DNA of 20,446 bases, taken from IMG/VR virus record IMGVR_UViG_2529293217_000011. One strand, written 5' to 3'. The stretch comes from a virus (lineage: Duplodnaviria > Heunggongvirae > Uroviricota > Caudoviricetes). Position 1 is the stretch's first letter. Each line of letters begins with the position of its first letter. The notes beneath the pieces were generated by a model. The model saw nothing but the letters and a program-made list of their open reading frames with translations. It was not told the origin of the DNA and ran no database searches. Below, piece after piece: positions 1-20,446 of this stretch. Made by a program: the position numbers and the translations under genes.

Positions 1-359
1 ATTTCGCCGTCTGCCTCCGCAATGGCCACCGCCACATCCAGCACATCTTCCGCTTCACGCGTATCGTGTTTCACATCCTCAATCTCGCGTAACGCGGCAC
101 GACGACCAATTTTAAAATTGGTATCCAGCTGACCGATAATAGTTGCGCTAATCGCATTAATTTCCGAGGTAAACGCAGACAACGCAGGCTGATTACGTAA
201 GACCTGTTCGATCTTCGCTTTCTCGGATGCCTCGCATTCACCATCTGCATAGGCCACCAGGTATGCAGCGTTAATCACCGCCTGTGCCAGATCGCGTTTC
301 TCAAACTTTTTAATTTCCGCTGCCGCTCTGCGGGTTTTCTTTTTGAAGATTCCAAACAT
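1..359 (-). CDS. Hypothetical protein, 5' portion only (continues beyond window start); possibly TerB-like
   Basis: Open frame on - strand from ATG at 359 (AAGGA Shine-Dalgarno about 9 nt upstream) running off the window with no stop; N-terminus MFGIFKKKTRRAAAEIKKFEKRDLAQAVINAAYLVAYADGECE. Not in the ORF track because it is truncated by the window edge. TerB-like assignment is a weak impression only. Confidence 0.5.
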   Translation of the reverse strand, partial: MFGIFKKKTRRAAAEIKKFEKRDLAQAVINAAYLVAYADGECEASEKAKIEQVLRNQPALSAFTSEINAISATIIGQLDTNFKIGRRAALREIEDVKHDTREAEDVLDVAVAIAEADGE

Positions 360-490
360 CGTGACGTTCCTTTGGGTGGGTGAGCCAACGCCCGGGAGCG
401 ATCTGCCCACAGAGAAAGTCACACTGACCACTCCGTAAGCTCACCCCCGAAAGGCTCTGTGGTTGATATGCGCCGGGCGTGGCGCAGATA

Positions 491-515
491 CAAAAAAGGC
501 CCGCCGAAGCGAGCC
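491..515 (-). terminator. Rho-independent terminator downstream of the tRNA pair
   Basis: On the - strand a GC stem (GGCTCGC / GCGGGCC) with a UUCG loop is followed by TTTTTTG; lies immediately 3' of the tRNA at 529-605. Confidence 0.55.
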
Positions 516-528
516 TGGAAAATAAGTG

Positions 529-605
529 TGGCGCGTTGTAGTGGAGTCGAACCACTGACCGATTGCTTAGAAGGCAATTGCTCTGTCCGGCTGAGCTAAC
601 AACGC
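529..605 (-). tRNA. tRNA-Arg (anticodon TCT)
   Basis: 77-nt cloverleaf read by hand on the - strand: 7-bp acceptor stem GCGTTGT/ACAACGC, D-arm GCTC/GAGC, anticodon stem ATTGC/GCAAT with loop CTTCTAA (anticodon TCT), T-arm AGTGG-TTCGACT-CCACT, encoded CCA. Resembles the argN/argO-type tRNAs carried downstream of Q in lambdoid/Stx phages. Confidence 0.8.
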
Positions 606-705
606 AGAATACCGATAATGGACCGCCATCGGGGACCCGCCCCCGCACCAACAACCCTGTTATGGTGTCGTCTGCTCTTCCTGATAAGCTAATGGCGGTT
701 TGTGA

Positions 706-781
706 TGGTGGCCCTTGCTGGATTTGAACCAGCGACCTGGCGATTATGAGTCGCTCGCTCTCACCACTGAGCTAAAGGGCC
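706..781 (-). tRNA. tRNA with anticodon CAT, ileX/ileZ-like (tRNA-Ile2; Met cannot be excluded)
   Basis: 76-nt cloverleaf on - strand: acceptor GGCCCTT/AAGGGCC, anticodon loop CTCATAA, T-loop GGTTCAAATCC, encoded CCA. Close to the E. coli ileX sequence as I recall it. Confidence 0.8.
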
Positions 782-820
782 GGGAGCAGAATAATAACGG
801 TCCGTAATTAATTCCGCAAT

Positions 821-843
821 AAAAAACCCGCTCAATGGCGGGT
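821..843 (-). terminator. Rho-independent terminator between the Q-candidate gene and the tRNAs (tR'-like position)
   Basis: Stem ACCCGC/GCGGGT with 6-nt loop, followed on the - strand by TTTTTTATT; sits about 80 bp 3' of the gene ending at 921. Confidence 0.6.
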
Positions 844-920
844 TCTGGTAAAGTTCATGCGTTTGGTTCGCCTCGCGATACAGCTTTGCGAAGCTTACCG
901 GAATTGAAGCAGTTTTTACG

Positions 921-1475
921 TCAAAAAGCAATAACTTTTTTCTCTATACCAAAAGCCATAACCATTGGTTTGTACAAAATAAATTCTGCCACCTTTAGCC
1001 AATGCTCAATGCGTCTTTCACAGGTTCTTAAACTCCATTCCGGATGTGCATCATTCAGCAGTTCAGCCATTTTGCGCTTAGTCATCCCCCGCCCCACATA
1101 ACGCTGACTCAGAACATTGAGCAGCCCGGGATAACCTGCCAGTACTTCACCAATAACCCTGTCGATTATTAACGCCTCTGAATCGGTACAATGCACCAGC
1201 CAGCTTTTTTGCTTGCCGTTGATCATATCCCGCAAAAAAGCCTCAAGTTTAGGTTTGTCCAGACCTGCTTTTTTCATCCTCCGGAGCGCCTCGTTAATTG
1301 CCGTTTTTGTCAGCTTTTTAGAGGTCAGCAACTGGTTGAACATATTTCCCGTCTTACCGCCGCCAATATACGACCAGCGCCCCCACATACGTAGTTTCCC
1401 CTGAATCCAGACACTTTCCAGCGTGGTGAGACGAAGGTGCTCTCCGCTTTTTCCTGTGTTCGTTGGGTAAATCAT
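921..1475 (-). CDS. Hypothetical phage protein, 184 aa; positional candidate for late-gene antiterminator (Q-like)
   Basis: ORF-track frame 921..1595 trimmed to the ATG at 1475, which overlaps the upstream stop as ATGA (translational coupling). Last gene of the nin-type block before a terminator and tRNAs, the position Q occupies in lambdoid phages. No sequence motif I can tie to Q, so function is positional inference. Confidence 0.6.
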   Translation of the reverse strand: MIYPTNTGKSGEHLRLTTLESVWIQGKLRMWGRWSYIGGGKTGNMFNQLLTSKKLTKTAINEALRRMKKAGLDKPKLEAFLRDMINGKQKSWLVHCTDSEALIIDRVIGEVLAGYPGLLNVLSQRYVGRGMTKRKMAELLNDAHPEWSLRTCERRIEHWLKVAEFILYKPMVMAFGIEKKVIAF

Positions 1476-1762
1476 AAATAACCGTCCTTTCTCCAGATCT
1501 CTTGTGTGCGAAAAACACCTTCTGCATGCATCAGGCGCAATTCTTCTTTGGTGTAATCGCTGGTTTTTACTCTCCCGTCGATTAAATCGTGGCATGAGTT
1601 ACAGGCAATCGCTGCCTGCATATCGTGTGGCTTTATCGCTGTTCCGCACGTTCCCGCCAGCCTGTAATGCGCCAGCACAGAGGTTTCGGGATTGTGATTG
1701 CAGTAGCCAGGGATTCTGATCTGGCATATCTGGCCTTTAGCCGCTTTACGTAAATTCACCAT
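1472..1762 (-). CDS. YbcO-like DUF1364 protein (putative Cys-rich nin-region nuclease), 96 aa
   Basis: 96-aa ORF with cysteine cluster (CQIRIPGYC...ACNSCHDLIDGR) matching the pattern of E. coli DLP12 YbcO as I recall it; start overlaps the stop of the upstream gene (TAATG). Confidence 0.7.
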   Translation of the reverse strand: MVNLRKAAKGQICQIRIPGYCNHNPETSVLAHYRLAGTCGTAIKPHDMQAAIACNSCHDLIDGRVKTSDYTKEELRLMHAEGVFRTQEIWRKDGYL

Positions 1763-2361
1763 TACGCAAACTCCAGTAGTTGTGCGGCCACATTTTCAAC
1801 TTCCTCCTGAGAGGAGAATTTACGGAACAGAATCCAGTTCCACAGCACATTCAGTACAGATTTATAAACCTGCTGAAACTCGACTTCGTCCATATTCGCA
1901 AAAGCGATGGATTTTGCCCGACGCCCACGGCTACCGTCCGGATAAATATGCTCGGTGTAAAATCCGGCCTGAATGGTTACCCACTCGCGGAAAGCCTCAA
2001 ACGACTTTAGCAACGCCGTATCCCGGGTTCTACGAGTCGCAACGGTGTTAAGGTATTGCTCTGCGGCATCACTCAGGGCTGGCGTGTGTTCCCGACCAAC
2101 TGATTCGCACAGGTAATCAACGAAACCAGACAGCAGTTCTCGTTCGCGAGGCGTGATCGCCCCACCGACCGGAGTCCAGTAATCGAATCCCAGTTGCAGG
2201 AGTTTGAAAAAACGCTTGTGGAATGCGTAGTTACGCACACGCTTAAAATCTGCGTGTATCCACTCACCTATTTTGATTTGATGCAGAAAATCGCAACTCT
2301 CCGGCGTCGCCGGGAGAAGTAAACCAGAAGAAGTTTGTTTGACCAGTTGTATATGCGCCAT
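1762..2361 (-). CDS. Nin-region phage protein, DUF1367-like, 199 aa
   Basis: Complete 199-aa ORF directly upstream of and coupled to the YbcO-like gene; the family name is an impression from context, not a search result. Confidence 0.6.
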   Translation of the reverse strand: MAHIQLVKQTSSGLLLPATPESCDFLHQIKIGEWIHADFKRVRNYAFHKRFFKLLQLGFDYWTPVGGAITPRERELLSGFVDYLCESVGREHTPALSDAAEQYLNTVATRRTRDTALLKSFEAFREWVTIQAGFYTEHIYPDGSRGRRAKSIAFANMDEVEFQQVYKSVLNVLWNWILFRKFSSQEEVENVAAQLLEFA

Positions 2362-2780
2362 TTCTCAATCTCTCGATGGCGCAGTGCAGCAGATGCCAGT
2401 TGTTCAAGCTAGCACGCAAATTGTAAACCAGAATGCCAGGAAAAAACAAAACCCGCCGAAGCTGGTTGTGTGCGGTTGCGTTGAAGTCTCCTAGCCAAAG
2501 AGTAGCGGTGACCACTCCCCGCCGATAATCTTAGTTGTTTAATTTCGTAAGCTAACTAGGCTAAAAGCTCTCTGTTGTCTGCCTGTTGTACAATTAACAA
2601 AATGAACAACGAACTAGATATACCAACGCCAGAATGGTGCAACAAATCCCAAACAACACAGCAATGCAACAATAACATATGTTATTTTCCTCTCACGGGA
2701 TTCAGTCCTGAATTCTCATAAAGCTAATCTTTTTTTAAAAACATACTGTTAGATCACATGCACTTTCTTTCTTAACATCG

Positions 2781-2808
2781 TTGACTTCGCATGCGAAGCG
2801 TTTAAAAT
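2781..2808 (+). promoter_or_regulatory. Sigma70-type promoter for the GHKL ATPase operon with an embedded 14-bp perfect palindrome
   Basis: TTGACT (2781-2786), 16-bp spacer, TAAAAT (2803-2808), about 50 bp upstream of the ATG at 2861; the spacer contains the perfect palindrome CTTCGCATGCGAAG (2785-2798). Confidence 0.5.
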
Positions 2809-2860
2809 CAACAATTTGCACTTAAGGTATTTATTTTCCCAAACACATAGAGAGTAAATT

Positions 2861-4252
2861 ATGACTGAGAACACGACTCCAACAGCAGACTTTAGTCCTA
2901 GTAAAAGATTTTTTGTAAGTATGCTAACTCGAGATATCGACTTAAACGATGCCATACTTGATCTGCTTGATAACTGCGTCGATGGGGCTTTACGTACAAT
3001 AAAAGACACAAAAAAAACTTCAAAACCATATGAAGGATTTTATGCGAAACTTACGATTAATAAAGATGTCTTTATTATAGAAGACAATTGCGGAGGTATC
3101 CCTAAAAGCTTCCGAGAATATGCTTTTAAAATGGGACGACCCCATCAAAAAGAAGAAGAAAATGAAGGCACCGTTGGCGTCTATGGTATTGGTATGAAAA
3201 GAGCCATTTTTAAAATGGGTAGAGATTGCTCAATACAATCGAATAATCCCGATGGCGCATTCACTGTAGATATAACACCTGATTGGATCGATGGTGATGG
3301 TTGGAAAATACCGATGCACGAGAGTGACTATGATAACAAAAATCCAACAGGCACAACTATAGAGATAAAAAAACTCCATTCTAATGTGGCACAAAAATTT
3401 AATGAGAGCACATATCTTACTGATCTCTTTTTACAGATAAAACACTCATTGTCATTTATTATTCAAAAAGGATTTAAAATAGAATTAAATGGAGTTGTTG
3501 TTGAACATAATCCGATTAACATCATAACTGATCATTCTAAAATAGAACCATACATATATAAAGCTAAAATAGACGATGTTGATATCGATTTAGTTGTTGG
3601 CTTCTATAAAAATTTAGAAGATGACAATGATGATGTTTTAGAAAAAAGGAGTTCTGATGATGCTGGATGGACTGTCATTTGCAATGACCGCGTTGTTCTA
3701 TATTGTGATAAGACACATCTCACAGGTTGGGGCTTTGCTAATGTACCAAGGTTTCATACCCAATTTATAGCAATTTCTGGGGTTGTTCGCTTTACCAGTA
3801 AAAACCCAGAAAAATTACCAATAACAACAACGAAACGAGGTGTCGATCTTAGTTCTACATTGTACAATGATGTACGAAATAAAATGATTGAAGGGATGAT
3901 GCATTTTATTCGATTCACCAATCAGTGGAAAGGTGAGCATCTTGAAGAAGGGAAAAAATTACTTAAGTCAGCTCAGTCACATGAAGCTCAATCTTTATTT
4001 GAAATTACCCCACAATCAACTCCAGAAGATAAAAAAAATAACTGGTCCAACCCTAATAGAAACAAAAATGAGTGGCGATATACACCTAAGCTGCCTACCC
4101 CAGTAAAAAAAAGCTCTACTGTACGAATAATCTTCACCAGAGAGAAAGAAGATGTTAAAATTTTATCTAAATATTTCTTTGGACATGAAGATGCTAGCGC
4201 TTCTGATGTGGGGATGCAATGCTTTGATACGGTGATTGAAGAGGTGAAGTGA
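2861..4252 (+). CDS. GHKL-superfamily (Bergerat-fold) ATPase, MORC/MutL-like N-terminal domain, 463 aa
   Basis: N-terminal motifs read directly from the translation: motif I LDLLDNCVDGA (cf. MutL ELVENSLDA), motif II IEDNCGGIP (DNGxGI), motif III GVYGIGMKRAIF, motif IV NPTGTTIEI. About 290 C-terminal residues with no motif I recognise. Low-GC coding sequence. Confidence 0.8.
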   Translation: MTENTTPTADFSPSKRFFVSMLTRDIDLNDAILDLLDNCVDGALRTIKDTKKTSKPYEGFYAKLTINKDVFIIEDNCGGIPKSFREYAFKMGRPHQKEEENEGTVGVYGIGMKRAIFKMGRDCSIQSNNPDGAFTVDITPDWIDGDGWKIPMHESDYDNKNPTGTTIEIKKLHSNVAQKFNESTYLTDLFLQIKHSLSFIIQKGFKIELNGVVVEHNPINIITDHSKIEPYIYKAKIDDVDIDLVVGFYKNLEDDNDDVLEKRSSDDAGWTVICNDRVVLYCDKTHLTGWGFANVPRFHTQFIAISGVVRFTSKNPEKLPITTTKRGVDLSSTLYNDVRNKMIEGMMHFIRFTNQWKGEHLEEGKKLLKSAQSHEAQSLFEITPQSTPEDKKNNWSNPNRNKNEWRYTPKLPTPVKKSSTVRIIFTREKEDVKILSKYFFGHEDASASDVGMQCFDTVIEEVK

Positions 4253-5241
4253 TGTCTGGACAATACATTCCCTATCACTTAAGGCATAATAAGTCTATTG
4301 ATAGAGAGATTTTTCTCGAAAGCCTAAACCTCTTAAGCAAAAGACTAAATATTCAAGAATATACATATATAGGTTTTGGTGGTCCGATGCTTGAAGATTT
4401 TAGAATCATGCATAATCGTATCGCTCTTTCTGATATGATTTCTCTCGAAGAACAAGAGTCTACTCACATCAGACAAAAATATAATTTGCCTTATAATTGT
4501 ATTGATTGTAAGCTAATATCAGCTCATGACTTTATTCTTGATTATAGTTTTTCTAAACCATCAATAACATGGTTAGACTATGCCTCCCCGAAAAAAATAC
4601 AAACGGATCTAGATGATATACACTTACTAAGTACTAAAGTAAGCTCTTTTGATATTTTGAAGGTCACCTTCCCCATAAATCCTAGTTCTTATTACCAACG
4701 TAGAGTTGGAGAAAGTTTAGATATTTTTAAAGAAGCTTTTATTAATTCATTAAAATCATTGCTTGGGAAAAAGTATCTTGATTTTAATCTTCAGATATCA
4801 AATGCAGATCTTTCAGATCGTAAGATTAAAGCTCTTTTAATACGAATTATTACAAACGCTTTTAGATCAGCAATAGAACGTGGTCTTTCAGGACGTAAGG
4901 ATAAGATTCAGTATTACCCATTATCCTTAAATCAATATAATGATGGCAGTCATACCATGTTGACAATATCAGGTTTTTTCTCCTCAGAACAAGAATATAT
5001 AGAGTTATCTAAGGCATGCGACCTTTCTAACTGGCAATTTTATTCAACAAATTGGGAAGACGTGCAAGAAATAGCAATACCAACACTAACAATTAAAGAA
5101 AAGATAAATTTAGATAGTAAACTGCCTGATAAAGAAGCATATCAGGCAGCCGCTGAAGAGTTCTCTTTAAACGAAAATGAACGGGATAACTATTATAAAT
5201 ACTATAGGTTATACCCTAACTTCCAAAGAATTATGGTTTAA
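4252..5241 (+). CDS. Hypothetical protein, about 330 aa, translationally coupled partner of the GHKL ATPase
   Basis: ATG at 4252 overlaps the TGA stop of the ATPase gene (TGATG); the ORF track starts it at GTG 4249. AT-rich like its neighbour. No catalytic motif (PD-(D/E)xK, HNH, PLD) could be assigned by eye. Confidence 0.7.
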   Translation: MSGQYIPYHLRHNKSIDREIFLESLNLLSKRLNIQEYTYIGFGGPMLEDFRIMHNRIALSDMISLEEQESTHIRQKYNLPYNCIDCKLISAHDFILDYSFSKPSITWLDYASPKKIQTDLDDIHLLSTKVSSFDILKVTFPINPSSYYQRRVGESLDIFKEAFINSLKSLLGKKYLDFNLQISNADLSDRKIKALLIRIITNAFRSAIERGLSGRKDKIQYYPLSLNQYNDGSHTMLTISGFFSSEQEYIELSKACDLSNWQFYSTNWEDVQEIAIPTLTIKEKINLDSKLPDKEAYQAAAEEFSLNENERDNYYKYYRLYPNFQRIMV

Positions 5242-6360
5242 ATATTCGGGCTGTACTCTTTTATTTAATAAATTGTACAGCCCCTTTAATATATATTCAG
5301 CAACTATTGGTGACACGCTATTTCCTATTTGTCTGAAACTATGCCATTTAGTTACATGAAAGCGAAACCAATCAGGGAAGCCTTGTAATCTAGCAGCTTC
5401 TCTTGGTGTAATCACTCTTGGATGATAAGGGTGGATCGGCCTGACGGCTTGAAAGCTTCCTTTATCTCTAGCGGTTCCCGCCCTTAAAGTCGGGCAAAAA
5501 CCATTTGGATCTAATCTTGTAGATCTTGAAATTTTATCAGTTTCCCCAAAAGATAAGGAAGCATAACGCTCTTGGACGATTTTGCTATGTAATGTTCCGG
5601 TACATCCAGATATGATATTATTTTTTAACTTAGCGATCGATTCTGTATCACCAACATTCCGAGGGATCTGCCCCCATAATTTTTCATAAAATCCCCCTTT
5701 TCGATCTTTTTTAATTGTTCGCCAACTCTCAGAGTCTGATTGCCAATTGGCATCGATAATATCTGGTAATCCATACAAAGCATCTTTTACAGTAACCGGA
5801 TCAATCATTTTAGGCATAAATACTTCATCTGAAATATCAAGCTTCAATGATTTTTTTACACCGATAAAAAAATATCTAGTTCGAATAGTTGGAGCACCAT
5901 AATCAGATGCTTTTACCTTGATGGGATCAAGAATATCATAATCACCGCTAACCAAATTAAATGCTTTATTTCTAATGCCAGAATATTTCTCTTGCATAAT
6001 ACCTGGAACATTTTCTGCCAAAAAGAATAATGGCTGTAATTCTGATACTAAACGGTAGAAATGCATGTAAAGCTGATTCCTGCTATCATCAGGATTCCCC
6101 TTGCCTATTGAACTAAATCCTTGGCACGGAGGACCGCCAATAATACCATCTATGGGCATATCGTTTTTAAAAAAACCCTTAATTATTTCTGCATTTAGTA
6201 AAGAAACATCTTCTTGGACGTGCAAACTTCTTGGAAAATTAATTGCGTGAGTATTAATAGCATGTTGATCAATTTCAACTGCCATTTTAACATCAAATCC
6301 AGCACGTGCAGCACCAAGACTTAGACCTCCAACGCCAGAAAACAAATCTATTACATTCAT
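5209..6360 (-). CDS. DNA (cytosine-5)-methyltransferase, 383 aa
   Basis: Canonical C5-MTase motifs: motif I DLFSGVGG, motif IV GGPPCQGFS (catalytic PCQ), ENV, C-terminal motif X QIGNSVSP. The 3' end overlaps the convergent partner gene by 33 bp (5209-5241). Confidence 0.9.
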   Translation of the reverse strand: MNVIDLFSGVGGLSLGAARAGFDVKMAVEIDQHAINTHAINFPRSLHVQEDVSLLNAEIIKGFFKNDMPIDGIIGGPPCQGFSSIGKGNPDDSRNQLYMHFYRLVSELQPLFFLAENVPGIMQEKYSGIRNKAFNLVSGDYDILDPIKVKASDYGAPTIRTRYFFIGVKKSLKLDISDEVFMPKMIDPVTVKDALYGLPDIIDANWQSDSESWRTIKKDRKGGFYEKLWGQIPRNVGDTESIAKLKNNIISGCTGTLHSKIVQERYASLSFGETDKISRSTRLDPNGFCPTLRAGTARDKGSFQAVRPIHPYHPRVITPREAARLQGFPDWFRFHVTKWHSFRQIGNSVSPIVAEYILKGLYNLLNKRVQPEYLNHNSLEVRV

Positions 6361-6392
6361 ATAGTTGCAACGTCTCTTATTAGTTTCTATGT

Positions 6393-6401
6393 ATTATAAC
6401 A
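6393..6401 (-). promoter_or_regulatory. Extended -10 element (TGtTATAAT) upstream of the methyltransferase gene
   Basis: On the - strand TGTTATAAT lies about 33 nt upstream of the MTase ATG (6360) in an AT-rich leader. Confidence 0.4.
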
Positions 6402-6791
6402 CAACTGTTCTTGATGTTTTAACCCCATAAGATAACCTCATAAAGGCTATCCCTTGAAAATACCGGATCGCATAAATTTAATCTTTCAAAACTACTTGTC
6501 TATTAATCGAGCAATTTAAGGTTGTTTTAGTCATGTCGATACCGACATAGTTAACTAAACCCATTTCATCGTCCAACAAATGGGGGTAATACACTTTGAT
6601 TTATAGTCGGGTGGGTTTTTCTCTATCTGCCTTTGGTGTTCATGCCCAAGGCAGATAGCCTCAAGCACCCGCAGCAATTCTACTTAACTATCCTTTTCCC
6701 GCAAATCGTTTTTATCCCCAGCGGCAAATCGAATACACAACCAGCGCCACCGCCATCGCAATTCCTACCGTTGTGAATGCTTCAGGCCAGG

Positions 6792-14491: not shown

Positions 14492-17092
14492 ATGAGCACA
14501 AAACCACTCTTCCTGTTACGGAAAGCGAAAAAATCATCCGGTGAACCTGACGTCGTCCTGTGGGCAAGCAACGATTTTGAATCGACCTGTGCCACTCTGG
14601 ACTACCTGATCGTTAAGTCAGGTAAAAAACTGAGCAGCTATTTTAAAGCTGTTGCCACGAATTTTCCTGTCGTTAATGACCTGCCCGCTGAAGGTGAGAT
14701 CGATTTTACCTGGAGTGAACGCTATCAACTCAGCAAAGACTCCATGACATGGGAACTAAAACCGGGAGCAGCACCAGACAACGCTCACTATCAAGGCAAT
14801 ACCAACGTCAACGGCGAAGACATGACTGAGATTGAGGAGAATATGCTACTCCCAATTTCTGGCCAGGAACTGCCCATTCGTTGGCTTGCTCAACACGGCA
14901 GCGAAAAACCGGTAACGCACGTTTCACGCGACGGACTCCAGGCATTACACATTGCTCGGGCTGAAGAACTACCGGCTGTTACTGCCCTGGCTGTTTCCCA
15001 CAAAACCAGCCTGCTCGACCCGCTGGAAATTCGCGAACTCCACAAACTGGTTCGTGACACTGACAAAGTTTTCCCTAATCCTGGTAATTCAAACCTGGGA
15101 CTGATAACTGCTTTTTTCGAAGCATACCTGAACGCTGACTACACCGATCGAGGACTGCTGACAAAAGAGTGGATGAAGGGTAATCGTGTTTCACACATCA
15201 CTCGCACGGCTTCCGGTGCTAATGCTGGCGGCGGAAACCTCACCGATCGCGGCGAAGGTTTCGTACACGATCTGACGTCACTGGCGCGCGACGTAGCCAC
15301 TGGCGTACTGGCCCGTTCAATGGATCTGGACATCTATAACCTTCATCCGGCACACGCTAAACGCATTGAGGAAATTATCGCTGAAAATAAACCGCCCTTT
15401 TCTGTTTTCCGCGACAAATTCATCACCATGCCTGGCGGGCTGGATTATTCCCGCGCCATCGTGGTTGCGTCCGTAAAAGAAGCACCAATTGGGATCGAGG
15501 TCATCCCCGCGCACGTCACTGAATATCTGAACAAAGTACTGACTGAAACCGATCATGCCAACCCTGATCCGGAAATCGTGGATATTGCCTGCGGTCGCTC
15601 CTCTGCCCCGATGCCGCAGCGAGTAACAGAAGAAGGAAAACAGGATGATGAAGAAAAACCGCAACCATCTGGAACAACGGCAGTTGAACAGGGAGAGGCT
15701 GAAACAATGGAACCGGACGCAACTGAACATCATCAGGACACGCAGCCGCTGGATGCTCAGTCACAGGTAAATTCTGTTGATGCGAAATATCAGGAACTGC
15801 GGGCAGAACTCCATGAAGCCCGGAAAAACATTCCATCAAAAAATCCTGTCGATGCCGATAAATTGCTTGCTGCATCACGTGGTGAATTTGTTGACGGAAT
15901 TAGCGACCCGAACGATCCGAAATGGGTAAAGGGGATCCAGACTCGCGATTGTGTGTACCAGAACCAGCCAGAAACGGAAAAAACCAGCCCGGATATGAAT
16001 CAACCTGAGCCAGTAGTGCAACAGGAACCGGAAATAGCCTGCAATGCCTGCGGCCAGACTGGCGGGGATAACTGCCCTGACTGTGGTGCGGTGATGGGCG
16101 ACGCAACATACCAGGAAACATTCGATGAAGAGAGTCAGGTTGAAGCTAAGGAAAATGATCCGGAGGAAATGGAAGGCGCTGAACATCCGCACAATGAGAA
16201 TGCTGGCAGCGATCCGCATCGCGATTGCAGTGATGAAACTGGCGAAGTCGCAGATCCCGTAATCGTAGAAGACATAGAGCCAGGTATTTATTACGGAATT
16301 TCGAATGAGAATTACCACGCGGGTCCCGGTGTCAGTAAGTCTCAGCTCGATGACATTGCTGATACTCCGGCACTGTATTTGTGGCGTAAAAATGCCCCCG
16401 TGGACACCACAAAGACAAAAACGCTCGATTTAGGAACCGCTTTCCACTGCCGGGTACTTGAGCCGGAAGAATTCAGTAACCGCTTTATCGTAGCACCTGA
16501 ATTTAACCGCCGGACAAACTCCGGAAAAGAAGAAGAGAAAGCGTTTCTGAGGGAATGCGCAAGCACAGGAAAAACGGTTATCACTGCCGAAGAAGGCCGG
16601 AAAATTGAACTCATGTATCAGAGCGTTATGGCTTTGCCGCTGGGGCAATGGCTTGTTGAAAGCGCCGGACACGCTGAATCATCAATTTACTGGGAAGATC
16701 CTGAAACAGCAATTTTGTGTCGGTGCCGTCCGGACAAAATTATCCCTGAATTTCACTGGATCATGGACGTGAAAACTACGGCGGATATTCAACGATTCAA
16801 AACCGCTTATTACGACTACCGCTATCACGTTCAGGATGCATTCTACAGTGACGGTTATGAAGCACAGTTTGGAGTGCAGCCAACTTTCGTTTTTCTGGTT
16901 GCCAGCACAACTATTGAATGCGGACGTTATCCGGTTGAAATTTTCATGATGGGCGAAGAAGCAAAACTGGCAGGTCAGCTGGAATATCACCGCAATCTGC
17001 GAACCCTGGCTGACTGCCTCAATACCGATGAATGGCCAGCTATTAAGACGTTATCACTGCCCCGCTGGGCTAAGGAATATGCAAATGACTAA
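14492..17092 (+). CDS. recE: Exodeoxyribonuclease VIII (RecE), 866 aa, apparently intact
   Basis: Full-length 866-aa ORF recognised as RecE; the C-terminal nuclease region (...[27 protein letters not shown]...) is present. Confidence 0.95.
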
Positions 17093-17894
17093 GCAACCAC
17101 CAATCGCAAAAGCCGATCTGCAAAAAACTCAGGGAAACCGTGCACCAGCAGCAATTAAAAATAACGACGTGATTAGTTTTATTAACCAGCCATCAATGAA
17201 AGAGCAACTGGCAGCAGCTCTTCCACGCCATATGACGGCTGAACGTATGATCCGTATCGCCACCACAGAAATTCGTAAAGTTCCGGCGTTAGGAAACTGT
17301 GACACTATGAGTTTTGTCAGTGCAATCGTACAGTGTTCACAGCTCGGACTTGAGCCCGGTAGCGCCCTCGGTCATGCATATTTACTGCCTTTTGGTAATA
17401 AAAACGAAAAGAGCGGTAAAAAAAACGTTCAGCTAATCATTGGCTATCGAGGCATGATTGATCTGGCTCGCCGTTCAGGTCAAATCGCCAGCTTGTCAGC
17501 CCGTGTTGTCCGTGAAGGTGACGAGTTTAATTTCGAATTTGGCCTTGATGAAAAGTTAATACACCGCCCAGGAGAAAACGAAGATGCCCCTGTTACCCAC
17601 GTCTATGCTGTCGCAAGACTGAAAGACGGAGGTACTCAGTTTGAAGTTATGACGCGCAAACAGATTGAGCTGGTGCGCAGCCAGAGTAAAGCTGGTAATA
17701 ACGGGCCGTGGGTAACTCACTGGGAAGAAATGGCAAAGAAAACGGCTATTCGTCGCCTGTTCAAATATCTGCCCGTATCAATTGAGATCCAGCGTGCAGT
17801 ATCAATGGATGAAAAGGAACCACTGACAATCGATCCTGCAGATTCCTCTGTATTAACCGGGGAATACAGTGTAATCGATAATTCAGAGGAATAA
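17085..17894 (+). CDS. recT: Single-strand annealing recombinase RecT, 269 aa
   Basis: [50 protein letters not shown]...; the start overlaps the recE 3' end by 8 nt; the ORF-track start at 17028 is an upstream in-frame extension. Confidence 0.95.
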
Positions 17895-17949
17895 TTCAGC
17901 CTGGCGGTGTAATGCACCGCCAACTTGAAATATTTTTATGAGAAAAATT

Positions 17950-18099
17950 ATGAGATATGACAATGTTAAACCATGTCCATTTTGTGGTTGTCCATCAGTA
18001 ACGGTGAAAGCCATTTCAGGATATTACCGAGCGAAGTGTAACGGATGCGAATCCCGAACCGGTTATGGTGGAAGTGAAAAAGAAGCACTCGAACGATGA
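17950..18099 (+). pseudogene. ralR: ralR (lar, restriction alleviation), truncated at codon 50 by in-frame TGA; frame continues to 18144
   Basis: MRYDNVKPCPFCGCPSVTVKAISGYYRAKCNGCESRTGYGGSEKEALER then TGA (18097-18099), then in frame NKRTTGNNNGGVHV and TAA. The K-12 RalR I recall is 64 aa with TGG (Trp) at this position. Confidence 0.7.
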
Positions 18100-18136
18100 A
18101 ATAAACGAACCACTGGAAATAATAATGGAGGTGTTC

Positions 18137-18325
18137 ATGTATAAAATTACCGCCACTATTGAAAAGGAAGGTGGCACTCCTACTAACTGGACAAGATATT
18201 CAAAATCTAAACTAACGAAATCAGAATGCGAAAAAATGCTCTCAGGTAAAAAAGAAGCAGGCGTTTCCAGAGAGCAGAAAGTAAAACTGATAAATTTTAA
18301 TTGCGAGAAACTTCAGTCCTCGTGA
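18137..18325 (+). CDS. ydaC: YdaC-like protein, 62 aa as encoded (in-frame TGA, then 6 further sense codons)
   Basis: MYKITATIEKEGGTPTNWTRYSKSKLTKSECEKMLSGKKEAGVSREQKVKLINFNCEKLQSS then TGA (18323-18325), then in frame IALYSN and TAA (18344-18346). The K-12 YdaC I recall is 69 aa ending SSRIALYSN. Confidence 0.7.
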   Translation: MYKITATIEKEGGTPTNWTRYSKSKLTKSECEKMLSGKKEAGVSREQKVKLINFNCEKLQSS

Positions 18326-18424
18326 ATTGCATTGTATTCAAATTAAAACTTCATAGCTGATTATTAATAATCAACATCGGGCGTCAATTTAAGTCTAACA
18401 TTGGCGCCTGCCAGAGGTGATGCG

Positions 18425-18640
18425 ATGGCACAAGTAATCTTTAATGAAGAGTGGATGGTTGAATACGGCCTGATGCTTCGCACTGGTCTGGGGGCCAGAC
18501 AAATTGAAGCATACCGCCAGAACTGTTGGGTGGAAGGCTTCCACTTCAAACGAGTATCTCCTTTAGGGAAGCCAGACAGTAAGCGAGGGATTATCTGGTA
18601 TAACTATCCAAAGATAAATCAGTTTATCAAAGACTCATGA
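18425..18640 (+). CDS. xisR: Excisionase XisR (YdaQ), 71 aa
   Basis: ORF-track frame trimmed to [44 protein letters not shown]...; lies immediately upstream of the integrase. Confidence 0.85.
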
Positions 18641-18641
18641 T

Positions 18642-19877
18642 ATGTCTAAATTACCAACAGGTGTCGAGATTCGAGGTAAATACATTCGCATCTGGTTCAT
18701 GTTTCGAGGAAAACGATGTCGGGAAACATTGAAAGGCTGGGAGGTTACTAACAGTAACATTAAAAAAGCCGGGAATTTAAGAGCGTTGATAGTTCATGAA
18801 ATCAATTCCGGTGAGTTTGAGTATTTAAGACGTTTTCCCCAGTCCAGCACTGGGGCAAAAATGGTGACAACGAGGGTCATAAAAACGTTCGGGGAGCTTT
18901 GTGATATCTGGACAAAAATTAAAGAAACAGAGTTAACAACAAACACAATGAAGAAAACGAAATCACAATTAAAAACACTCAGGATAATAATTTGTGAGAG
19001 TACTCCGATATCGCATATTCGTTATAGCGATATCTTAAACTACCGGAATGAACTGCTGCATGGAGAAACGCTTTACCTGGATAATCCAAGATCCAACAAA
19101 AAAGGAAGAACCGTGCGCACAGTTGATAACTATATCGCCCTGCTCTGTTCGTTGTTACGTTTTGCGTATCAGTCGGGATTTATATCAACCAAACCATTTG
19201 AAGGAGTAAAGAAATTACAGAGAAACAGAATAAAGCCTGACCCGTTATCTAAAACAGAATTCAATGCATTAATGGAAAGTGAAAAAGGACAGAGCCAGAA
19301 CTTGTGGAAATTTGCCGTATACTCCGGGCTTCGTCACGGGGAACTGGCTGCTCTGGCGTGGGAGGATGTGGATTTCGAGAAGGGAGTTGTGAATGTCAGA
19401 AGAAACCTGACGATACTGGATATGTTCGGTCCCCCAAAAACAAATGCGGGGATCCGGACGGTAACACTACTGCAGCCTGCTCTTGAAGCACTGAAGGAGC
19501 AATACAAACTGACCGGGCATCATCGCAAAAGCGAAATCACCTTTTATCATCGGGAGTACGGCAGAACCGAAAAGCAAAAACTGCATTTTGTTTTCATGCC
19601 CAGGGTGTGTAACGGAAAACAAAAACCTTATTACTCGGTAAGCAGTTTGGGGGCAAGGTGGAATGCAGCAGTAAAACGTGCTGGTATTCGCCGCCGTAAT
19701 CCGTACCATACGCGGCATACTTTTGCCTGCTGGCTGTTGACGGCAGGAGCGAACCCGGCATTTATAGCCAGCCAAATGGGGCATGAAACTGCGCAGATGG
19801 TGTATGAAATTTACGGTATGTGGATTGATGACATGAACGACGAACAGGTAGCCATGTTGAATGCGCGGTTATCATAG
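18642..19877 (+). CDS. intR: Rac-type tyrosine integrase IntR, 411 aa
   Basis: Full 411-aa ORF (MSKLPTGVEIRGKYIRIWFMFRGKRCRETLKGW...) with C-terminal catalytic region (...HTRHTFACWLLTAGANPAFIASQMGHETAQMVYEIY). Confidence 0.95.
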   Translation: MSKLPTGVEIRGKYIRIWFMFRGKRCRETLKGWEVTNSNIKKAGNLRALIVHEINSGEFEYLRRFPQSSTGAKMVTTRVIKTFGELCDIWTKIKETELTTNTMKKTKSQLKTLRIIICESTPISHIRYSDILNYRNELLHGETLYLDNPRSNKKGRTVRTVDNYIALLCSLLRFAYQSGFISTKPFEGVKKLQRNRIKPDPLSKTEFNALMESEKGQSQNLWKFAVYSGLRHGELAALAWEDVDFEKGVVNVRRNLTILDMFGPPKTNAGIRTVTLLQPALEALKEQYKLTGHHRKSEITFYHREYGRTEKQKLHFVFMPRVCNGKQKPYYSVSSLGARWNAAVKRAGIRRRNPYHTRHTFACWLLTAGANPAFIASQMGHETAQMVYEIYGMWIDDMNDEQVAMLNARLS

Positions 19878-19884
19878 TTGCAAA

Positions 19885-19908
19885 GTTTGCCCCCAATTTG
19901 CCCCATTT
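19885..19908. repeat. Two tandem TTTGCCCC(C/A) units just 3' of intR; putative integrase arm-type sites
   Basis: GTTTGCCCCCAA and TTTGCCCCATTT read directly; same motif as the larger cluster at 20082-20131. Confidence 0.45.
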
Positions 19909-19928
19909 AGTACCAGAGAACTGAAATA

Positions 19929-19988
19929 ATGCAAGAAAATCAACAAATTACAAAGAAAGAACAATACAACCTGAACAAGTCAGAGTAA
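19929..19988 (+). pseudogene. ttcA-like 5' fragment (19 codons) at the prophage junction
   Basis: ATG CAA GAA AAT CAA CAA ATT ACA AAG AAA GAA CAA TAC AAC CTG AAC AAG (MQENQQITKKEQYNLNK) matches the TtcA N-terminus as I recall it, then diverges (SE-stop). Rac is known to integrate in ttcA. Confidence 0.4.
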
Positions 19989-20081
19989 AAACCGCAACTA
20001 TCTGACGAACAATAACTTTTATGTTTTTCAATATGTTAGGCAGGATTAACAACTACAATAAAGCACAATAATCTACACTTT

Positions 20082-20131
20082 TTTTGCCCCATTTTTGCCC
20101 CTTTTGCGGCCTTTTGTCCCATTTTTGCCAC
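20082..20131. repeat. Five tandem roughly 10-bp repeats, consensus TTTTGCCCCA; candidate Int arm-type binding sites or att-region repeats
   Basis: TTTTGCCCCA TTTTTGCCCC TTTTGCGGCC TTTTGTCCCA TTTTTGCCAC with about 10-bp periodicity. Confidence 0.5.
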
Positions 20132-20241
20132 AGTAAAAATCTATAACTAATCAATCTGGCGCCCATGATTTCTTTCCAATAGAATCAGTTCCGGCTGGAA
20201 ATCATTAGATACTCGCACTATCGAAAAGCTTACCAGCCAAC

Positions 20242-20276
20242 CGCGGCACGTTCTTGCATACGAGGTGCCGCGTTTT
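20242..20276 (+). terminator. Hairpin CGCGGCAC...GTGCCGCG followed by TTTTA; possible terminator
   Basis: 8-bp perfect stem, 15-nt loop, U-tract on the + strand; context unknown because the window ends soon after. Confidence 0.3.
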
Positions 20277-20446
20277 ACATGCCGTACCGAGAATTAATTT
20301 CATTTTACGAAAAGTTAACCCGCCATTGCTACCTTAATTTTTTAAAACGAAGTTACCTCTGTCAGGGTCAAAAGCACAATTATCTCTTCCTACAATCATT
20401 GAAACTGCGATTGATTCCCTGCTCAAAGGATGAGCCGCCCTTGTTT

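Follow-up and report, generated by a model that had tools for sequence, protein, structure and literature searches.

The gene ralR is reportedly identical to lar, the restriction-alleviation gene of King and Murray (1995). In the Rac prophage of Escherichia coli K-12 it encodes the toxin of the RalR/RalA type I toxin-antitoxin system (PMC4041452), which lies in the order recE-recT-ralR-ydaC/RalA-xis-int at ttcA. The antitoxin, RalA, is an antisense small RNA (sRNA) through which DNA of the ydaC region acts; mutations of the ydaC start or stop codon leave antitoxin function unaffected, and the YdaC protein was undetectable (Guo et al. 2014, PMC4041452). A screen of RalR mutants generated by error-prone PCR linked lower toxicity to residues 14, 37, 39, 49, 51, and 52, and purified RalR K52Q showed no DNA cleavage (Guo et al. 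2014, PMC4041452). The chromosomal hok homologues of K-12 are mostly inactive (PMC4041452).

Here, we analyzed a 20,446-nucleotide stretch of DNA (the window) from a virus of the Caudoviricetes (IMG/VR record IMGVR_UViG_2529293217_000011). The window shares the gene order of the Rac module, with about 99% DNA identity in that region, but departs from K-12 within ralR and in the length of ydaC. Its closest counterparts are prophages Sp10 of O157:H7 Sakai and CP-933R of EDL933: positions 1 to 19978 are 100% identical to both, as well as to many more O157:H7 genomes, with no difference within ralR and the same 49-aa product.

The ralR gene carries an opal codon in place of Trp50

Translation of positions 17950 to 18144 (plus strand) gives MRYDNVKPCPFCGCPSVTVKAISGYYRAKCNGCESRTGYGGSEKEALER, a stop, NKRTTGNNNGGVHV, and a second stop, the in-frame stop codons being TGA at 18097 to 18099 and TAA at 18142 to 18144. 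The truncated ralR (lar) open reading frame (17950 to 18099, plus strand) comprises 49 codons and the opal stop. We compared this region with ralR (b1348) of the K-12 MG1655 Rac prophage over 506 aligned nucleotides and found five differences, only two of which fall inside the ralR frame. At position 18094 the window has C where K-12 has A, a synonymous change (Arg49, CGA rather than AGA), and at position 18099 it has A where K-12 has G, which converts the TGG of the invariant Trp50 to TGA. The first-pass annotation of the window had named the gene ralR, read it through 49 codons to this TGA, attributed the stop to a single G-to-A change, and given the residues after it as the C terminus of K-12 RalR; the translation and the alignment confirm each of these points, with an exact match of that C terminus to NKRTTGNNNGGVHV. 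As was also proposed there, the truncation removes the last 15 residues (50 to 64).

The base following the opal codon is A, giving the stop context UGA-A. The in-frame 3' remnant of ralR (18100 to 18144, plus strand), consisting of NKRTTGNNNGGVHV and TAA, is the same as in K-12 and, lying past the stop, probably goes untranslated in this frame. The remaining differences from K-12 are a 1-nt change of length in a T-run upstream of ralR, T rather than A at 18323, and A rather than C at 18391. The T-run (17933 to 17937), 12 nt 5' of the ralR ATG, is T5 here and T6 in K-12, and it lies in the ralR leader between a GC-rich hairpin (GGCGGTG...CACCGCC, 17903 to 17921) and the start codon.

The opal allele is common in E. 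coli and has a single haplotype

The first-pass annotation had taken the stop to be either a lesion that might be private to this DNA or a base-call error. We counted alleles in 5,426 complete E. coli genomes using 41-nt queries centered on the variant base, such that each 28-nt megablast seed had to contain the variant. CGA-TGA was present in 310 genomes, CGA-TGG in 127, and the K-12 type, AGA-TGG, in 1,517, while the AGA-TGA haplotype was found in none of the 5,426. The 551-nt ralR region occurs in 1,923 of the genomes, and about 16% of ralR carriers have the opal allele. These carriers include the reference genomes of O157:H7 Sakai and EDL933, O55:H7, O111, and O26, together with unrelated human, bovine, and avian isolates. 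The same 551 nt are found, identical, in three phage records, and the exact 49-aa protein is encoded on at least 1,000 contigs, where NCBI and UniRef name it RalR or Lar. Occurrence of an identical allele in 310 independently assembled complete genomes and three phage records, and its perfect linkage to a second nearby substitution (C18094), make a sequencing or assembly error in the window vanishingly improbable; a base-call error is ruled out by the same 41-mer around the TGA in those 310 genomes. The stop is instead a common, stably inherited allele. Only 167 genomes contain 80% or more of the 20-kb window, compared with the 310 that carry the opal allele, and therefore the allele must also reside in other mosaic prophage backbones.

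The first-pass annotation had further held that its interpretation would fail if reference RalR proteins also ended at this position. This is true of part of the references, among them the 49-aa EDL933 protein WP_001443846.1, but not of K-12. RefSeq/PGAP names WP_001443846.1 [quoted passage not shown] and gives it no pseudogene flag, and the older Sakai annotation omits ralR. The allele is already deposited and annotated in enterohemorrhagic E. coli (EHEC) reference genomes.

A more divergent ralR lineage, represented by O145 RM9873 and O157 strain 7.1_Anguil and associated with a different recET module, has CGA-TGG, and the orthologues in Salmonella and Citrobacter read RWN[KR]R. These comparisons make TGG the ancestral and TGA the derived state; C18094 is probably also ancestral, which would make the AGA of K-12 derived. 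The opal codon occurs solely together with C18094, a pattern that fits a single origin on one haplotype. Recurrent mutation was considered and rejected, as the AGA-TGA haplotype is absent. The two positions, 18094 and 18099, are 5 nt apart and perfectly linked.

CGA-TGG is seemingly absent on the ralR backbone of the window and was observed only on the more divergent one. A search for a TGG progenitor on the window's backbone (T18063-C18094-G18099) gave no full-length exact 41-mer among the best matches listed, a result that is suggestive only, because the variant lies close to one end of the query and bands of identity are smeared when BLAST trims its alignments. Sampling may have missed the CGA-TGG intermediates; alternatively, the two changes may have come about together, in a single event or a short conversion tract.

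The stop removes a motif conserved throughout the Lar family

The 49-aa product retains the four zinc-ribbon cysteines, C9, C12, C30, and C33, in the arrangement CxxC...CxxC. It matches the RalR equivalog NCBIfam NF007260 at 126.9 bits (cutoff, 113) over profile positions 1 to 49 of 64, Pfam PF14354 at 39 bits (cutoff, 28.6) over positions 2 to 52 of 58, and TIGR03655 at 40.3 bits (cutoff, 39.6). Full-length RalR scores 53.5 bits against the 58-position Pfam Lar_restr_allev profile, over positions 2 to 58, and the truncation thus costs the Pfam Lar match 14.5 bits and profile positions 53 to 58. The translated product ends at R49 and lacks the invariant W-N-x-R motif carried by the C-terminal helix.

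A word-indexed search of proteins yielded no more than 19 close relatives, and family-wide conservation required an exhaustive search of representatives; phmmer against 1.84 billion of these gave 1,690 relatives. We scored conservation in 211 distant Lar-domain copies, all sharing less than 60% identity with RalR. W50 is kept in every one of the 211, N51 in 202 of the 211, and R53 in 180 of 197, a level equal to that of the four zinc-ribbon cysteines, whose columns are nearly or fully invariant. In an AlphaFold model (58-sequence alignment; pLDDT, 77.7), RalR has a beta-hairpin at residues 17 to 30 and one helix at residues 43 to 54, and the stop falls in the middle of this only predicted helix. 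By descent the gene is a member of the RalR/Lar family, and its predicted product lacks the WNxR feature.

No solved structure of a relative was found: the PDB sequence matches were spurious hits to CbpD (E = 0.002 to 0.016), and Foldseek against the PDB produced no hit below E = 0.1, its matches being generic zinc ribbons (for example, ELOF1/Elf1 and RPC11). Many distant relatives are proteins of 100 to 430 aa with 2 to 5 tandem Lar domains, each keeping CxxC...CxxC...WNxR, and single-domain RalR is just one architecture within the Lar family.

RalA and its pairing site are intact

The RalA antitoxin sRNA (179 nt; 18143 to 18321, minus strand) lies downstream of ralR in the opposite orientation. 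It matches Rfam RF02694 at 225.1 bits (gathering score, 170) over model positions 1 to 179 of 179 and has no differences from K-12 RalA. The 16-nt RalA pairing site within ralR, AAGTGAAAAAGAAGCA (18072 to 18087, plus strand), is intact, identical to that of K-12, and located 10 nt upstream of the opal codon. RalA contains the partner, a 16-nt repeat (TGCTTCTTTTTTACCT) at 18244 to 18259 on the minus strand. The complementarity between RalA and ralR is therefore present, and both copies match the K-12 sequences used in the published work (PMC4041452). These data suggest that the locus is probably a dead toxin accompanied by a live antitoxin RNA.

Some E. coli records contain RalR-YdaC fusion proteins (P0012 and P0015), joined at GSEKEA/GVSREQ. 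The fusion junction corresponds to the two 16-nt RalA pairing repeats, which suggests that the fusions arose by deletion or rearrangement through recombination between these repeats.

Immediately downstream, ydaC (18137 to 18325, plus strand) encodes a 62-aa DUF1187 protein that matches Pfam PF06688 at 132 bits over positions 1 to 61 of 61. The first-pass annotation had claimed that the truncation uncouples ydaC from ralR. The geometry agrees with this, as the ydaC ATG (18137 to 18139), which in K-12 belongs to an 8-nt overlap with the end of ralR, is here 37 nt past the new stop. However, a strong Shine-Dalgarno sequence of its own, GGAGGT (18127 to 18132), precedes the ydaC ATG by 4 nt, and YdaC has never been detected, so that the claim does not extend beyond the geometry and any effect of the ralR stop on ydaC translation is speculative. 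The ydaC stop, TGA at 18323 to 18325, is found here and in the divergent O145/Anguil lineage, whereas K-12 has AGA and its rcbA extends to 69 aa. The 61-position DUF1187 profile fits the 62-aa form end to end, and the 69-aa rcbA of K-12 looks like a derived stop-loss variant.

The truncated toxin is likely inactive

The published activity of RalR requires residues beyond the new stop, since toxicity falls with changes at residues 51 and 52, and K52Q has no DNase activity left. The 49-aa product would on these grounds have lost DNase and toxin activity, and its Lar activity is probably lost as well. We consider it likely that W50opal is a genuine, vertically and horizontally inherited loss-of-function allele of ralR in Sp10/CP-933R, a Rac-like lambdoid prophage of EHEC. 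The module would then consist of a dead toxin and a still-intact antitoxin sRNA, and RalA may persist simply through its overlap with ydaC and the shortness of the elapsed time. As it removes a self-toxic DNase, the allele probably has either no effect on fitness or a slight benefit, and it probably spread along with successful EHEC prophage lineages. A literature search on the truncated O157 ralR allele returned no paper on the truncation and no experiment on the 49-aa form.

Several observations count against loss of function. PGAP raises no pseudogene flag, the truncated protein still scores above the RalR equivalog cutoff, and both RalA and the in-frame 3' remnant are undecayed relative to K-12. 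Such lack of decay would also fit a still-functional module, but with so little divergence it carries no information. One way in which function could persist is that the 49-aa zinc-ribbon fragment has a function of its own, which the truncation separates from DNase toxicity; this could be restriction alleviation through binding of an EcoKI-type enzyme, or a nontoxic regulatory or decoy role. Consistent with this, all four cysteines and the beta-hairpin core are kept, the allele has been maintained, free of any further lesion, in at least 310 genomes and on several prophage backbones, and PGAP treats the 49-aa frame as a normal coding sequence. However, the missing W50-N51-x-R53 is invariant family-wide, even in Lar members with no known toxin role, which argues that the fold, or an activity common to the family, depends on WNxR, and the helix of the AlphaFold model is cut in the middle. 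We therefore regard a retained function as very unlikely.

A different way for the allele to be attenuated rather than null is offered by the stop codon itself. UGA is the leakiest stop codon of E. coli, and readthrough would restore Trp, the original residue. If Trp-tRNATrp inserted the lost Trp, a few percent of 64-aa RalR could be made as a down-tuned toxin. Readthrough of UGA by Trp-tRNATrp in K-12 reporters amounts to roughly 2% at 37°C and 4% at 25°C (PMC10570021), the 14 codons and TAA downstream of the stop are intact and the same as in K-12, and RalA is kept intact, all of which would suit a leaky opal codon. Against it stands the non-K-12 RF2 variant RF2-B, with which UGAA terminates fast and readthrough products are undetectable (PMC5373646). 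The fold of positions 18060 to 18160 was no stabler than that of shuffled sequences (z = 0.23), so that no stimulatory RNA structure was found around the stop, and it contained no hairpin, SECIS-like or other, 3' of the UGA. O157 strains presumably carry the efficient RF2 type, and the lack of decay downstream is uninformative, as that region overlaps the start of ydaC and the divergence is tiny. A leaky opal codon is, in our estimation, unlikely. Programmed UGA recoding, by selenocysteine or structured readthrough, was rejected because the fold has no stimulatory structure.

We also assign little probability to the broader proposal that W50opal is something other than a simple null, either because trace RalR is made via tRNATrp or because an orphan RalA is kept as protection for EHEC lysogens. 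Were trace readthrough to occur, RalR would be a condition-dependent, strongly attenuated toxin, made in greater amounts at low temperature or high tRNATrp. Were the orphan antitoxin under selection, EHEC lysogens would be shielded from the RalR of incoming Rac-like phages, as a form of anti-addiction or immunity.

Taken as a loss-of-function allele, W50opal resembles the inactivated hok homologues of K-12, in that a point lesion knocks out the toxin reading frame and spares the region of the antisense or antitoxin RNA. It differs from them in that a single nonsense codon disables a soluble DNase-type toxin, whereas hok loci encode a membrane peptide and have suffered IS insertions or rearrangements; inactivity in the present case is deduced from sequence. 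The phenotypes described for full-length K-12 RalR, namely DNase toxicity, fosfomycin tolerance, and restriction alleviation, may not carry over to Sp10/CP-933R lysogens, and the product that automated annotation by PGAP labels an ordinary RalR toxin is truncated and probably inactive. The allele is an ordinary one that opens no new biological question and has modest practical consequences. It can serve as a handy natural marker for a single lineage of the prophage module.

The window spans attP of an Sp10-like phage

Identity of the window to the O157 chromosome ends at position 19978, which is the prophage end. The last 511 nt of the window (19936 to 20446) match, at 99.4%, the opposite end of Sp10 (Sakai 1972152 to 1972662), beside nleG5-1 and not at ttcA. 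Unlike integrated Sp10/CP-933R, the window therefore runs not into ttcA but across attP of an excised, circular Sp10-like phage to the other prophage end. The 43-nt overlap, at about 19936 to 19978, is likely the att core. Spontaneous excision and low-level transfer have been reported for Sp10 (PMC2669165), and a window that spans attP fits this behavior.

The prophage has tRNA genes at 532 to 605 and 709 to 781 (minus strand), annotated as Arg and Ile in EDL933, and a frameshifted DUF4014 gene at about 7553 to 7770, which carries a pseudogene flag in the identical EDL933 sequence; the two tRNA genes and the DUF4014 pseudogene are ordinary features of an Sp10-like prophage. The ralR-ydaC region also matches, with 90.6% DNA identity, PP818812.1, phage vB_Apl-pPE4, which is assigned to Actinobacillus pleuropneumoniae, an unexpected host for a Rac-like module.
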